Part shown: positions 2,224 through 23,307 of the stretch, piece after piece | How the letters are laid out: every line of letters starts with the position of its first letter | How positions within the stretch are numbered: the first letter of the stretch is position 1 | NCBI RefSeq assembly: GCF_006345805.1 | Contig: NW_021836526.1 | Coordinates: 1-23,762 of the forward strand | Direction: 5' to 3' | DNA length: 23,762 nucleotides | Source of the DNA: Octopus sinensis | Taxonomy: Eukaryota | Notes under the pieces: generated by a model | The model's database searches: none | Seen by the model: only the letters and a program-made list of their open reading frames with translations | What the model was told of the DNA's origin: nothing | Made by a program: the position numbers and the translations under genes

Positions 2224-3555
2224 TGTGAGACGTTTTGTCACAGCTGTTTTGGCGCCGCCTATTTTGCGTCACTAATTCGACGCTGGCCTATTTCACATCG
2301 CGAGGCGTTTTGGCACAGCTGTTTTGGTGTCGCTAAATCGACGTTAACTTATTTCATTCACATCGTGAGACATTTTGGCGCCGCTTATTTGGTGTCGCTA
2401 ATTCGACGATGAGTTATTCCACATCGTGAGACGTTTTGACACAGCTGTTTTGGCGCCGCCTATTTTGCGTCACTAATTCGACGCTGCCTATTTCACATCG
2501 CGGCGAGGCTTTTGGCACAGCTGTTTTGGCGCCGCTATTTTGCGTCACCAATTCGACGCTGGCCTATTTCACATCGCGAGGCATTTTGGCACAGCTGTTT
2601 TGGTGCCGCCTATTTTGCGCACTAATTCGACGCTGGCCTATTTCACATCGCGAGGCGTTTTGACACAGCTGTTTTGGGCCCGCCTTTTTGCGTCACTAAT
2701 TCGACGCTGGCCTATTTCACATCGCGAGGCGTTTTGGCACAGCTGTTTTGGCGCCGCCTATTTTGCGTCACTAATTCGACGCTGGCCTATTTCACATCGC
2801 GAGGCGTTTTGGCACAGCTGTTTTGGCGCCGCCTATTTTGCGTCACTAATTCGACGCTGGCCTATTTCACATCGCGAGGCGTTTTGGCACAGCTGTTTTG
2901 GCGCCGCCTATTTTGCGTCACTAATTCGACGCTGGCCTATTTCACATCGTGAGACGTTTTGTCACAGCTGTTTTGACGCCGCCTATTTTGCGTCACTAAT
3001 TCGACGCTGGCCTATTTCACATCGTGAGACGTTTTGTCACAGCTGTTTTGGCGCCGCCTATTTTGCGTCACTAATTCGACGCTGGCCTATTTCACATCGC
3101 GAGGCGTTTTGGCACAGCTGTTTTGGCGCCGCCTATTTTGCGTCACTAATTCGACGCTGGCCTATTTCACATCGCGAGGCGTTTTGGCACAGCTGTTTTG
3201 GCGCCGCCTATTTGCGTCACTAATCGACGCTGGCCTATTTCACATCGCGAGGCGTTTTGTCACAGCTGTTTTGGCGCCGCCTATTTTGCGTCACTAATTC
3301 GACGCTGGCCTATTTCACATCGCGAGGCGTTTTGTCACAGCTGTTTTGGCGCCGCCTATTTTGCGTCACTAATTCGACGCTGGCCTATTTCACATCGTGA
3401 GACGTTTTGACACAGCTGTTTTGGCGCCGCCTATTTTGCGTCACTAATTCGACGCTGGCCTATTTCACATCGTGAGACGTTTTGGCACAGCTGTTTTGGC
3501 GCCGCCTATTTAGCGTCGCTGATTCGAAGCTGCTTTATTTGACATGAGGCGTTTT
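2224..3555. repeat. CpG-rich 75-bp tandem satellite, ~17-18 copies
   Basis: TCGACGCTGG recurs at 2701, 2776, 2851, 2926 and 3001. The centre is homogeneous and the ends are degenerate. Confidence 0.95.
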
Positions 3556-3961
3556 GATGTTGGTTCGTTTTGAACCACTCGCTTCCACACTGTTTCCTTC
3601 TACCAAATTCGCTCTCACGGGCAATGATCGGCCCGAGACTATTGCAGTATATATTTGCTCAAGGTGTTACTCAATGGTAATGAACTCGCAACCTCGTGGT
3701 TGCAAAGTCAAGCTTCTTAACCACACGAACCATTTTTTTTTGGGGGGGGGGGGAGGGGGAATCTTATATTTCTGGTTTGTAACAAACCTCTAACATTTAG
3801 TAGTAATATCTATGTGATGTGCAGGTGAATATTGGTGGTGGCCAACTTGGACTGGCATTTGTGGCGTGACCCTGAGTACAAATGCACATGGTTTTTGACA
3901 CTGGTACTGCATCTGCTGCAATTAAATCAGTTGCTGCACATTATCTTATGCAATATTCAAA

Positions 3962-4950
3962 GGCGGCGGGCTGGCAGAACCGTTAGCACGCCGGGTGAAA
4001 TGCTTTGCGGTATTTCGTCTGCCGTTACGTTCTGGGTTCGAATTCCGCCGAGGTCGACTTTGCCTTTCATCCTTTCGGGGTCGATTAAATAAGTACCAGT
4101 TACGCACTGGGGTCGATGTAATCGACTTACTCCGTTCGTTTGTCTGTCTGTCTTGCTTGTCCCCTCTGTGTGTAGCCCCTTGTGGGTAGTAAAGAAATAG
4201 GTATTTCGTCTGCCTTACGTTCTGTGGGTTCGAATTCCGCCGAGGTCGACTTTGCCTTTCATCCTTTCGGGGTCGATTAAATAAGTACCATTTACGCACT
4301 GGGGTCGATGTAATCGACTTACTCCGTTCGTTTGTCTGTCCTTGCTTGTCCCCTCTGTGTGTAGCCCCTGTGGGGTAGTAAAGAAATAGGTATTTCGTCT
4401 GCCGTTACGTTCTGGGTTCGAATTCCGCCGAGGTCGACTTTGCCTTTCATCCTTTCGGGGTCGATTAAATAAGTACCAGTTACGCACTGGGGTCGATGTA
4501 ATCGACTTACTCCGTTCGTTTGTCTGTCCTTGCTTGTCCCCTCTGTGTGTAGCCCCTTGTGGGTAGTAAAGAAATAGGTATTTCGTCTGCCGTTACGTTC
4601 TGGGTTCGAATTCCGCCGAGGTCGACTTTGCCTTTCATCCTTTCGGGGTCGATTAAATAAGTACCAGTTACGCACTGGGGTCGATGTAATCGACTTACTC
4701 CGTTCGTTTGTCTGTCCTTGCTTGTCCTCTGTGTTTAGCCCCTTGTGGGTAGTAAAGAAATAGGTATTTCGTCTGCCGTTACGTTCTGGGTTCAAATTCC
4801 GCCGAGGTCGACTTTGCCTTTCATCCTTTCGGGGTCGATTAAATAAGTACCAGTTACGCACTGGGGTCGATGTAATCGACTTACTCCGTTCGTTTGTCTG
4901 TCCTTGCTTGTCCCTTCTGTGTGTAGCCCCTTGTGGGTAGTAAAGAAATA
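3962..4950 (+). mobile_element. Same SINE, head + 5 tandem ~188-bp bodies
   Basis: 10-bp TSD AATATTCAAA at 3952-3961 and 4951-4960. Head 3962-4008. Units start at 4009, 4200, 4389, 4577 and 4763, each with GGTATTTCGTC. Confidence 0.9.
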
Positions 4951-4960
4951 AATATTCAAA

Positions 4961-7704: not shown

Positions 7705-8099
7705 ACATTCATATACACACACACACATATATAAACATTCATACACACACACACACACACACACATATATAAACATTCATACACACACACACACACACAT
7801 ATAAACATTCATACACACACACACACATATAAACATTCATACACACACACACACACATATATAAACATTCATACACACACACACACACATATATAAACAT
7901 TCATACACACACACACACACACATATAAACATTCATACACACACACACACACACATATAAACATTCATACACACACACACACATATAAACATTCATACAC
8001 ACACACACCCATATAAACATTCATACACACACACACACACATAAAACATTCATACACACACACACACACCACATATAAACATTCATACACACACACATA
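7705..8099. repeat. Minisatellite of ATAAACATTCAT + variable (AC)n, ~13 units of ~28-34 bp
   Basis: Seen directly. Sits within a larger TA/CA tract at 7285-8190. Confidence 0.9.
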
Positions 8100-8422
8100 T
8101 AATATATATATATATAATATATAATATATATATATACATATATATATATCATATATATACATACATATACATACACATATATATATATACCGGCGTAAGT
8201 GTATTGTTTGAGTGCATTTATGCTTGAGCACGTTTCGGTGTATGTAATTTTATCTCAGCAAGATTCAGAATGCAGCCGGTAATGGGGAAGGGCGATGAGG
8301 TTTTTAGGGTTAAATGGTATGTATGAGTGTGTTCGTGGCATCTGCATAATACTTGATGTTATAGCAATAATCACAAGGAACAATAAACGTATATCTATAA
8401 TTACGTATGCTGATTATATATA

Positions 8423-8836
8423 CTCTTTTACTCTTTTACTTGTTTCAGTCATTTGACTGCGGCCATGCTGGAGCACCCCCTTTAATCGAGCAACTCGACC
8501 GCGGGACTTATTCTTTTTGTAAGCCCAGTACTTATTCTATCGGTCTCCTTCGCCGAACCGCCAAGTGACGGGGACGTAAACACACCAGCATCGGTTGTCA
8601 AGCAATGCTAGGGGGGACAAACACAGACACACAAACATACACACGCATACATATATATATATAATATATATACGACGGGCTTCTTTCAGTTTCCGTCTAG
8701 CAAATCCACTCACAAGGCTTTGGTCGGCCCGAGGCTATAGTAGAAGACACTTGGCCAAGGTGCCACGCAGTGGGACTGAACCCGGAACCATGTGGTTGGT
8801 AGACAAGCTACTTACTACACAGCCACTCCTGTGCCT
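8423..8836 (-). mobile_element. Full-length SINE family A
   Basis: Reverse complement of 1493-1900. ~17-bp TSD TATG(C/T)TGATTATATATA at 8406-8422 and 8836-8852. Confidence 0.85.
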
Positions 8837-8856
8837 ATGTTGATTATATATATATA

Positions 8857-9158
8857 TCACCGTGACTGACCAGGCTATGAGATGTTGTTACACATCGCTG
8901 GTCACAATGCGCTTCGCATTGTTTTAGCCTTCAAATGACGCCACCCTGCTGGCTAAGCGAGCAGGCCAACAGAAGAAAGAGTGAGGGAAAGTTGTGGCGA
9001 AAGAGTACAGCAGGGATCGCCACCACACCCTGCCGGAGCTCGTGGAGCTTTTAGGTGTTTTCGCTCAATAAACACTCACAACGCCCGGTCTAGGAATCGA
9101 AACCGCGATCCTACAACCGCGAATCCGCTGCCCTAACCACTGGGCCAGTGCGCCTCCA
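8857..9158 (-). mobile_element. tRNA(Arg)-like SINE (family C), tail type 1
   Basis: Minus-strand head TGGAGGCGCA.TGGCCCAGTGGTTAGGGCAGCGGA.TCGCGG...GGTTTCGATTCC with A and B boxes. Body shared with 9271-9598 and 10861-11247. Confidence 0.8.
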
Positions 9159-18130: not shown

Positions 18131-18278
18131 GATGGCGTGTTCACACTATTTCTTTATTACCCACAAGGGGCGAACGAAGAGGGGGACATAGAACATTACA
18201 ATTAAATTTATGAAGGATGAATTGTTACATGAAAAAATGATAATATGAAAGCGATGCTAAAGGCCCCATCCGTTAGCA

Positions 18279-18548
18279 TCACTTACCTGTCCTTTGGTTT
18301 TCACCGTCACTTGAATGTTCTTTCCCAATACGAATAAATTCCATATCCATTCTTACTCCGAAATACTCATCCATATTTTCCACGAATTCATCGCTCATTC
18401 TTATATCTTTCACCTCCCAATTCTCCCTTTCACACCTCACCATAAACTCATCTATGTTCTTTTTTTCAATCACAGCATACCTAGTCTCACCAACTTCATA
18501 CCATTTATACTCTTCCATTAGACTTTTAACTTCTTTCTGTTCAGTCAT
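18279..18548 (-). CDS. Probable C-terminal continuation of the ORF1 protein (89-aa acidic segment)
   Basis: Adding one base to the G6 run at 18625-18630 gives an uninterrupted read ...TRSPPTRKLKKKNNTDRQEIEIEPRPYICT-MTEQKEV... to the stop at 18279. Confidence 0.6.
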   Translation of the reverse strand: MTEQKEVKSLMEEYKWYEVGETRYAVIEKKNIDEFMVRCERENWEVKDIRMSDEFVENMDEYFGVRMDMEFIRIGKEHSSDGENQRTGK

Positions 18549-18610
18549 AGTACAAATGTACGGCCTGGGTTCGATTTCAATCTCTTGTCTGTCTGTATTA
18601 TTTTTTTTCT

Positions 18611-19699
18611 TTAGTTTTCTTGTTGGGGGGAGCGGGTGGGTTCACTGTCTGCAGGGATAGGGTGGGACTCAGAGGGTGTGGGTGGTTTTGGGGTGGATTG
18701 GTGTTCCATATTATTTTCTTTTCCTCGTATTCTTCTCTTCCTCTTATTTCCAGCTTCCTTCCATTTCTGTGTATTCTCTTCCTCTTCTACTGTCTCCTTC
18801 TCCTCTGGTTTCTGCTTCTCTCTCTGTGGTTCGGAATCCATTTCTTTCCCTGGGGGAGGGCAGAAGGCTCTTATGTGACCCCTCAGGCCACACTTGTAAC
18901 AACGTGGAGCTCTGCCCTCCACCCACACTCTCATGATCACGTCTCCCAATCTGATGCTTTCCGCCAGGTCCACCAGTACCTCGTTCTCTGCCTGCACGTT
19001 CAGCTCCACTGTTACGCCTCTCCAGCCCTCGGTCTTAACCGAGGCATGGAGAATATCCACTTCCTCCTCGTGGCCGCTGATCACAGCCGCCACAATCCAC
19101 TCTGCCTCCACGTTTGGTGGCACTCCCTCCACCCTTATTCGTGTAATCCTTCTATTCAAATACATAGGTAAAAGTGTTACCTTTTCTGACTTCACCGCCT
19201 TCGCCGCCATCTTCCTCGCTGCAGTCTCACTTTTAAAATGTACCACTACGGTACCATACTTGGATCCCCGAGTAAGAAAATTAATTTCCTCCTCAGTTCT
19301 TCTCAGGGCCTCCTCTATCCACTCCATGTTTACAACCTCTATTTTCTTCCTTTCGTTTGCGAACACCCTGTAAATAATGGTCCTCTTATCATACCATTCT
19401 TTTCTCTTGGGTGTCGGTGCCAGTTCCACCTCACCGCTATCCTTTTTCATGTATTTCTGGTAACTTGTTAACTTGGCCAAGTCGACCCCTTTCTCTTCAG
19501 CCTTCTTGGTTACACCGGCATAGGTATAACCCAGCTTCTCGTCCAATTTCCTCGCTGCCATTTCTAGCTCCTTCTCAGACGTAGACAAGTCTGATAAAGA
19601 CTCGAAAACTCCAGCCTTATCTCCCATCAGCTTCATTGTCACTGCCTGTTCCAGTTCCTCATCAGTCGTGGACAAGTCTGTTAGAGACTCATAGTCCAT
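18611..19699 (-). CDS. Gag-like/LINE ORF1p nucleic-acid-binding protein with CCHC zinc knuckle (362 aa from MDYESL; probably ~473 aa after a 1-bp frameshift)
   Basis: Long non-repetitive ORF. CYKCGLRGHIRAFC (CX2CX4HX4C) lies at 18860-18901, preceded by an RRM-like stretch (RIRVEGVP...IMRVWVEGRAPR) typical of L1/Tx1 ORF1 and followed by a basic KRKRR patch. The first ATG inside the TSD is at 19699. Confidence 0.75.
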   Translation of the reverse strand: MDYESLTDLSTTDEELEQAVTMKLMGDKAGVFESLSDLSTSEKELEMAARKLDEKLGYTYAGVTKKAEEKGVDLAKLTSYQKYMKKDSGEVELAPTPKRKEWYDKRTIIYRVFANERKKIEVVNMEWIEEALRRTEEEINFLTRGSKYGTVVVHFKSETAARKMAAKAVKSEKVTLLPMYLNRRITRIRVEGVPPNVEAEWIVAAVISGHEEEVDILHASVKTEGWRGVTVELNVQAENEVLVDLAESIRLGDVIMRVWVEGRAPRCYKCGLRGHIRAFCPPPGKEMDSEPQREKQKPEEKETVEEEENTQKWKEAGNKRKRRIRGKENNMEHQSTPKPPTPSESHPIPADSEPTRSPQQEN

Positions 19700-20496
19700 T
19701 TCCCTCTGTCTGACAGACCGAAAACGGCCGCCAAAAAAGAAAAAGGATGGCGTGTTCACACACAGGCGCCTGTCCTGTCCCCGCCATAGAATGTTTACGC
19801 CTCCTGGTGACTGAATGCAAAAAAAAAAAAAAAAAAGGAAAATTTTGGGTCGGTTTCTTCGACTAAAGTCTTTCAAGGTGGTGTCCCAGCATGACCGCAG
19901 AAAAAAAGATGAAAAGTTAGCTATTTTAGGGGAGGGGGACAATCGGTTCAAGACAGTCCTGCAAGGGTGGAAGGCAAAGTTGACTGCCACAGAACTTCGA
20001 ATCAGAACGTAAAGAGACCGAAGAAGTGCTGCTAACCATTTTGTACGACGCACAAGCAATTGTGCCGCTCACCGCCATAGTTTGAAAGAGGAACGAAGCG
20101 TGGTTAAATATTTTAAATTAAGAAATAAAAACTTAAAAGGAAAAACAGTTCGTTCCCAGATTAACCCATCGAGTTTACGGTCATGAAGTCGCATGTTCGA
20201 ATCTGGTTCACGGTCACAAAGTTACTTATTAGAATCTAGTTTACGGTTCTGAAGTTGAATGTTCGAATCTGGTTTGGAGCTCTTATAACAGTTTACTGAA
20301 ATAGTATCAATATTTGGAATAGTCAGTATCAAAAGAGAATGGCGCATCATGCGATCATTAAATTTTGTCTTCCACGAAAGACATATTCGTTTCTGTTCTT
20401 TAACAACAAGCATTAAAACCTCAATTTAAAAAGATGCAACGTAAAATTATTTTAATATATTAATTCATCCAAAACAGGTTTGCGTGAATGTATGTG

Positions 20497-21633: not shown

Positions 21634-22171
21634 ATATTTATTTATTGCCCCCAGGAGGCTAAACACAGAGGGGACAAACAAGGACAGACAAACGGATTAA
21701 GTCGATTATATCGACCCCAGTGCGTTACTAGTACTTAATTTATCGACCCCGAAAGGATGAAAGGTAAAGTCGACCTCGGCGGAATTTGAACTCAGAGCGT
21801 AGCAGCAGACGAAATACCTATTTCTTTACTACCCACAAGGGGCTAAACACAGAGGGGACAAGCAAGGACAGACAAACGGATTAAGTCGATTATATCGACC
21901 CCAGTGCGTTACTAGTACTTAATTTATCGACCCCGAAAGGATGAAAGGTAAAGTCGACCTCGGCGGAATTTGAACTCAGAGCGTAGCAGCAGACGAAATA
22001 CCTATTTCTTTACTACCACAGGGGCTAAACACAGAGGGGACAAACAAGGACAGACAACGGATTAGATTAAGTCGATATTCGACCCCAGTGCGTTACTAGT
22101 ACTTAATTTATCGACCCCGAAAGGATGAAAGGTAAAGTCGACCTCGGCGGAATTTGAACTCAGAACATAAC
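21634..22171 (-). mobile_element. Same SINE, 3 tandem bodies, 5'-truncated (no head)
   Basis: GAAATACC|TATTTC junctions at 21818/21819 and 22002/22003. Possible 9-bp TSD TTTTATTAT at 21625-21633 and 22172-22180. Confidence 0.8.
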
Positions 22172-22454: not shown

Positions 22455-23307
22455 AGGAGGCAGCGAGGATGGCGAATTAGTAGAAGTGTTCGATCGGTAT
22501 TTCATCCGGCTCTTGACGATCTGACGATCTGAGTTCAAATTCCGCCGAGGTCGACTTTGCCTTTCATCCTTTCGAGGTCGATTAAATAAGTACCAGTTAC
22601 GCACCGGGGTCTCTATAATCGACTTAATCCGTTATGTCCTGTCTTTTTGTCTCATTCTGTGTTTAGCCCCTTGTGGGTAGTAAAAAAGTAGGGTATTTAG
22701 TCTGTCTTTACGTTCTGAGTTCAAATTCCGCCGAGGTCGACTTTGCCTTTCATCCTTTCGGTGTCGATAAAAAAGACCAGTACGCACTGGGGTCGATGTA
22801 ATCGACTTAATACCTATGGTCCTTGTTTGTCCCCTCTCTGTTTAGCCCCTTGTGTGTAGTAAAGAAATAGGTATTTCATCCGGCTCTTGACTTTCTGAGT
22901 TCAAATTCCGCCGAGGTCGACTTTCCCTTTCACCCGTTCGGGGTCAATTAAATAAATACCTATTTCTTTATTACCCACAAGGAGCTAAACACAGAGGGGA
23001 CAAACAAGGACAGACATAGGTATTAAGTTGATTACATCGACCCCAGTGCGCAACTGGTACTTAATTTATCGACCCCGGAAGGATGAAAGGCAAAGTCGAC
23101 CTTGGCGGAATTTGAACTCAGAACGTAACGGGAGACCAAATACGGCTACGCATTTCGCCCGGCGTGCTAACGTTTCTGCCAGCTCACCGCCTTAATTAAA
23201 TAAATACCAGTTACGCACTGGGGTCGATATAATCGACTTAATTAATCCCTTTGTCTGTCCTTGTTTGTCTTTTCTATGTTTGGTCCCCTGTAGGCAATAA
23301 AGAAATA
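22455..23307 (+). mobile_element. Older, more diverged array of the same SINE (3 bodies), the last body interrupted by a nested copy
   Basis: Junctions at ~22691 and 22870 (AAAGAAATAG|GTATTTC). The third body resumes at ~23209 and ends in AATAAAGAAATA at ~23307. Confidence 0.75.
22961..23191 (-). mobile_element. Full-length monomeric copy of the same SINE nested antisense in the previous array
   Basis: 15-bp TSD AATTAAATAAATACC at 22946-22960 and 23194-23208. Head, body and tail are complete. Confidence 0.85.

Follow-up and report, generated by a model that had tools for sequence, protein, structure and literature searches.

The window, that is, the whole stretch of Octopus sinensis DNA analysed here (23,762 nucleotides; contig NW_021836526.1), carries a forward-strand SINE array at 3952–4960. 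One 47-nt head (3962–4008) and five bodies of 186–191 nt lie between two copies of the TSD AATATTCAAA (3952–3961 and 4951–4960), much as the original prediction of one head and five ~188-bp bodies in a single TSD pair had it. TRF describes the array (3962–4950) as 5.0 copies of period 188 with a 96% match. The final AA of the left TSD overlaps the AA usual before heads, which directly precedes 95 of 129 full heads. We number positions along a natural 231-nt copy (L011), so that element position 48 is window 4009, the start of body 1 (4009–4199) and of the internal target word GGTATTTC (4009–4016); bodies 2 to 5 follow on the same strand at 4200–4388, 4389–4576, 4577–4762 and 4763–4950. The head is not a tRNA gene, and ARAGORN and Rfam found neither a tRNA gene nor a known structured RNA in the array. 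It contains TGGCAGAACCG at 3972–3982, which we take to be A-box-like, and body 1 contains GGTTCGAATTCC at 4035–4046, presumably B-box-like.

We refer to the SINE family of this array as A; its relatives B1–B3 have positions 1–166 in common and differ in their tails. Family A is short and dispersed, with more than 100 copies (the sampled 1.4 Mb of genome contains 108 complete 3′ ends) and, at many of them, varying TSDs of about 8–23 bp. We presume a likeness to MetaSINE or to the octopus SINEs OK/OR1/OR2.

A TTCG insertion marks all five bodies, and the 24-mer containing it occurs five times in 2.72 Gb, always within this array. The expectation of array-specific variants stands for TTCG, but the units are not uniform. 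Only body 5 agrees with the parent subfamily at two sites, bodies 1–4 have one further change in common, and the tail letter of body 4 (T at position 204) is the family majority, with G in the other four. Apart from the insertion, body 5 is identical to a young monomer elsewhere (L002) and is likely the founding copy of the array. About 420 bp upstream, at 2373–3532, lies a 75-bp satellite (15.5 copies, 94% match).

The junction between units, AAAGAAATA followed directly by GGTATTTC, had been said to recur in other arrays of the window, and it does so at 1013 (−), 21818 and 22002 (−), and 22870 (+); a decayed version stands at 22692. The first of these lies in a head with two bodies on the reverse strand (830–1243), bounded by the 19-bp TSD GGTTCAGTTTAAGAGAGTA. 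The array at 21635–22171 (−) has three units that share middle variants, as described originally, but it has no head and its last unit carries a C-type tail whereas the upstream units carry T-type tails. The older three-unit array at 22524–23307 (+) does hold the junction, but is not continuous: its last unit is split by a full copy on the opposite strand (22961–23191), which has its own TSD, GGTATTTATTTAATT, and was inserted at an opposite-strand GGTATT word. Copies of another SINE-like family are present at 1–407 (an inverted pair), 1490–1880 and 8424–8838.

A fixed junction throughout the genome

The exact junction 21-mer occurs 34,598 times genome-wide, and its reversed control not once. 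Across 140 evenly spaced 10-kb stretches (1.4 Mb; hereafter, the even sample), 45 of 108 complete A 3′ ends adjoin another family match. The match restarts at position 48 in 32 cases, elsewhere within positions 47–50 in four, at 53 after a short insert in two, at 15 in three and at other points in four; in all, 36 of the 45 restart at 47–50. Roughly one third of complete copies (38/108 in the sample) thus stand at such a junction. Chains beginning with an A unit comprise one, two, three and four units in 55, 22, 2 and 3 cases, respectively.

Short-read data contain the same junction. The joint from 4199 back to 4009 is the best-supported go-back joint there (47 contigs in run X1, 17 in X11 and two raw reads in X23), although its presence in the RNA-like run X11 is uninformative because genomic arrays contain it too. 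The junction type is no assembly artefact, one of the outcomes that had been named as grounds for abandoning the prediction. An artefact of long-read assembly might be suspected because the contig is small and unplaced and because some units differ by indels; however, the short-read contigs and raw reads, the distinct substitutions of the units and the locus-specific nested TSDs described below leave that explanation with next to no credence. The unit number of five at 3952–4960 is the count in the assembly of this small, unplaced contig. At the right flank, run X2 passes into the SINE tail, and a contig of run X6 that aligns from exactly 4951 onward continues into 248 bases not fitting the SINE tail, likely an empty site. 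The left flank has no cover in the four short-read runs and is uninformative.

Resident copies as probable targets

A tight pattern search recovered 137 chimeric arrays in which a young A unit stands on the body of the older family B3. We fetched the first 30 and scored 27 (two had no clean chain and one no scored region). Non-CpG divergence is 0.114 for the downstream B3 unit and 0.051 for the upstream A unit, and is larger downstream in 25 of 27 (p=1e-5), though the B3 yardstick pools sub-lineages and may inflate B3 divergence. Of the chimera heads, 11 of 26 are B3-like, a state that 1 of 25 lone A copies shows (p=0.002), whereas at positions 55–66 the upstream unit is A-like in 25 of 26. 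Only 14 chimeras have GGCATTTC at the junction, compared with the 137 that have GGTATTTC, although C is the letter at this place in 69% of lone B3 copies.

Nested insertions that retain both heads were also recovered. The pattern of old head, TSD and new head gave 96 matches, some of them tandem repeats at one locus. Thirty loci were taken, of which seven were dropped as overlaps or a duplicate; 19 of the remaining 23 resume with a position-48 word, and eight repeat locus-private letters on both sides as judged by eye. At one locus (L224), a 5′-truncated insert of 41 nt, flanked by a TSD at position 48, lies inside a B3 copy that was also hit at position 15. The even sample (1.4 Mb) held no two-headed form, but the idea that such insertions are absent was rejected once the targeted pattern searches had found them. 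Since two-headed forms are rare, merging of the new copy with the old must be very efficient.

Junctions at large are commonly mixed. Units of different subfamily or tail class are joined at 67 of 115 junctions and like units at 48, a count that leaves out the long array L180 and the pattern-selected B3 pairs and in which ‘other tail’ includes truncated units. The like-with-like junctions exceed the prediction of random targeting. In unbiased A–A arrays, the first and last units do not differ significantly in age (0.025 and 0.032, p=0.10, n=21), and the same test including search-selected loci gives p=0.027. Mixed junctions, older downstream units and nested TSDs at position 48 together show that a single TSD can span more than one event.

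Target words follow the tail type

Tails of family A fall into T-tails and C-tails according to the letter at tail position −13, and the two types end before different words. GGTA directly follows 24 of 57 T-tail ends and 1 of 33 C-tail ends (p=3e-5; background 0.26%), whereas AGAA directly follows 3 of 57 and 13 of 33 (p=8e-5). The word at the junction, GGTATTT, is the same one that starts the TSDs of lone copies (24/57). Moreover, the target word also lies within the left TSD copy (e.g., L023, L030, L061, L115, L161) and so was part of the target.

Both words exist in the interior of the element, GGTATTTC at position 48 and AGAAAC at position 15. T-tails are joined to position 48 in 53 cases and C-tails to position 15 in three of five; in another count, C-tails join position 15 in 11 cases and position 48 in five. 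The young subfamily to which the window array belongs prefers TAT words (7 of 11 terminal ends after removal of one mislabelled junction, with no GGTA), and because it lands on TAT elsewhere, the window array is atypical. Tails of the B families stand before AATATT or ATTATT. That the words track the RNA lineage suggests that bases behind the tail would pair with the nicked target strand. Position 48 was used in 36 junctions among 224 family copies, compared with 19 GGTA insertions among ~2,000 GGTAT words; it is favoured beyond the word alone, though part of the junctions come from local duplication.

Two side observations concern the same words. Older B families cluster as full-headed copies (L042, L087, L093, L121, L152, L161) with short ATT-rich linkers between them, in keeping with their own tail words. 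At three loci (L219, L253, L261), a head variant (43G, 48C) of the incoming copies abolishes their own target word; 48C is present in about a fifth of units, and the variant could be an escape from self-insertion.

Local duplication of units

Clonal arrays are a minority. Neighbours have a rare variant in common in 6 of the 23 chains of two units and in 13 of the 24 longer ones (background 2.7%), and the median distance is 0.060 between adjacent units as compared with 0.097 between random pairs. DNA-level duplication is evident at three kinds of site. One array (L180, G000:C9293) has at least 18 headless units with a nine-unit block repeated as a higher-order repeat, and is a SINE turning into a satellite. 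Another (L166, minus strand, 7730–8900) has six units, two junctions of which contain a telomere-like insert, GGTATTT followed by AGGGTTAGGG; this suggests a break at the target site that was healed and later duplicated. The third consists of tandem repeats of head plus TSD, 65–67 bp long (G000:C3430:1373-2204; C1:195358959-195359250; C7:15322788-15323084), which likely grew from nested insertions.

Where a T-tail unit stands upstream of a C-tail unit, about 5 of 14 pairs have private body variants in common but different tails. Two dimers (L177, L188) have this form, for which crossover alone is an awkward explanation; the form is consistent with a cDNA of the tail only, annealed to the late part of an old body that is thereby duplicated. 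The concordance of units (phi) is low at positions 200–221 (−0.01, 0.48, 0.22 and 0.09) compared with 0.24–0.79 upstream. Shared rare variants showed no significant sign of the 5′ bias that was predicted for them (p=0.75), nor did phi vary significantly with position (p=0.53), which weakens the case for a tail-only duplication step. The five near-identical units of the window array nevertheless need a local-copy step, either tail-primed duplication or later unequal exchange, and a founding monomer followed by tail-primed duplication and expansion fits what is seen there.

Origin of the chains

With the sum of this evidence, we consider it probable that the chains arise by self-targeted insertion at position 48 with in-register joining. 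Target-primed reverse transcription by a LINE would probably insert the new SINE copy at position 48 of a resident copy, the RNA running a few bases past AAAGAAAUA and these read-through bases presumably pairing with the nicked target strand. The unit has no TTTT run, so RNA derived from a chain would carry GGUAUUUC, and with the read-through bases paired to the nicked target, chains would breed chains. The 5′ end of the new copy would then likely pair in register with the old one, leaving one head and the oldest TSD, with the cDNA joining at a point that may vary. Joining near or before position 55 would add one new body; joining late in the body would duplicate the local old body, with only the tail new. 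Later unequal exchange would lengthen some arrays. A special hairpin at the junction adds nothing here, for although a loop is predicted there, the fold is no better than that of shuffled sequences (z −0.35).

The one TSD, the mixed units and the word rule would also follow from template jumping in trans during a single insertion event, the cDNA pausing at position 48 and moving via the shared word to the 3′ end of another RNA. Jumps of R2 to small RNAs in vivo are reported in one study (PMC3414825), and at one locus (L256) three A units lie within one nested TSD. Such jumping, however, predicts the head of the RNA copied last and units of equal age, yet the old-type heads and the roughly twofold greater divergence of downstream units are found in the chimeras, and the TSDs at position 48 mean that genomic DNA was nicked there; we consider it improbable. 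Rolling-circle or repeated copying of one RNA could explain why TTCG is in every unit of the window array and nowhere else, and why neighbouring units are close. As a general cause it is quite improbable, given the 67 mixed junctions, the departure of body 5 from bodies 1–4 toward the subfamily state, and a second junction, at position 15, that goes with another tail; nor was a hammerhead found, there being no Rfam ribozyme match at E≤10 and no CTGANGA core on either strand. For the minority of near-identical arrays, repeated copying of one RNA may apply, and for the window array taken by itself it is a real but minority possibility.

Whole copying of a few multimeric master genes is likewise quite improbable. 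Read-through of entire chains is possible, as no TTTT terminator occurs within a unit, and same-subfamily neighbours are in excess, but the downstream B3 units of the chimeras are mutually different and decayed, upstream and downstream classes combine freely, and among ACA pairs no position-specific haplotype recurs. The original prediction had attributed the arrays to a circular RNA, programmed template jumping or a multimeric master. Its core, a fixed and sequence-directed junction made during retrotransposition, is supported; a circle or one master as the general cause is not supported, in view of the mixed junctions, the usually older downstream unit and the nested TSDs. Its argument that unequal crossover would not reproduce one breakpoint holds for the first dimer only, as later crossovers all keep the junction.

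Self-targeted insertion leads to a broader idea, which we advance tentatively and with slightly less belief than doubt: the choice of insertion site would not be set by the enzyme alone but passed on with the few bases that the RNA carries beyond its tail by read-through. Each lineage would have its own word (GGTATT, AGAA, TATA, AATATT), one whose word matches its own interior would become a self-feeding chain builder, and, because tail-only cDNA could trigger duplication of a resident copy, retrotransposition would seed satellites.

Relation to known systems

The nearest counterpart is in the blood clam Scapharca broughtonii, whose TSD-(SINE)n-TSD arrays were suggested to arise by unequal recombination (PMC11481361). 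Clam and octopus arrays alike have one TSD pair, a head (in the clam, a tRNA head) complete on the first unit only and internal units whose heads are cut at one common point. In the clam, internal units are also 3′-truncated and 64 elements form arrays of 4–15 units, whereas the octopus tails are complete, the junctions exceed 34,000, and there are a target-word rule and nested intermediates. Squamate SINE-derived satellites are similar in having tandem units shorter than the SINE and one longer terminal unit, and their origin is ascribed both to unequal recombination and to same-locus insertion; TSDs, template switching and rolling circles do not appear in the accessible text (PMC10702118).

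In mechanism, the octopus chains would probably resemble the tandem insertion of R1, except that the element serves as its own target. R1 and R2/R1 SIDE arrays in 28S genes form by repeated insertion at a regenerated target, but there the target is a host gene, a 14-bp TSD lies between copies and specificity does not come from a word inside the element (PMC3414825). A comparable LINE pathway joins the new 5′ end by annealing it to the DNA of the target, yet it uses microhomology, whereas the homology of the octopus SINE would span the whole element and erase the second head (PMC4245944). Non-LTR retrozymes are short tandem animal retro-repeats, sometimes with TSDs, but form circular RNAs and have hammerhead ribozymes, of which none was found in the octopus SINE (PMC7229834; bioRxiv 10.64898/2026.07.22.740005); the array is not a retrozyme.

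Arrays of similar shape, serial insertion at one site and annealed 5′ joining are thus each already known separately. SINEs make up 11.6% of an octopus genome, and the available part of that report does not mention such chains (PMC13282606). A literature search, mostly without subscription papers and thus without the 1994 octopus SINE paper, returned no description of A-family chains or of self-targeting through an internal word. The mechanism proposed here offers a testable route from SINE to tandem array, a step for which both of the closest papers invoke unequal recombination. Chains read as single insertions would distort family consensus, copy counts and age estimates. The data also suggest that the LINE involved can take its target from the 3′ bases of the RNA. 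Among 16 endonuclease-LINE 3′ ends sampled out of 150 matches, none carries the SINE tail.

That tail does end a repeated element of ~1.6 kb at 18147–19745 (−) of the window, which contains a zinc-knuckle, ORF1-like frame of 359 aa but lacks a reverse transcriptase. Its copies ending in AAAGAAATA are followed by GTGT and those ending in AAAGAA by TCACCA-like words, and one copy is joined at a TCACCAC site internal to its own family. The element may share both its LINE and its target rule with the SINE.
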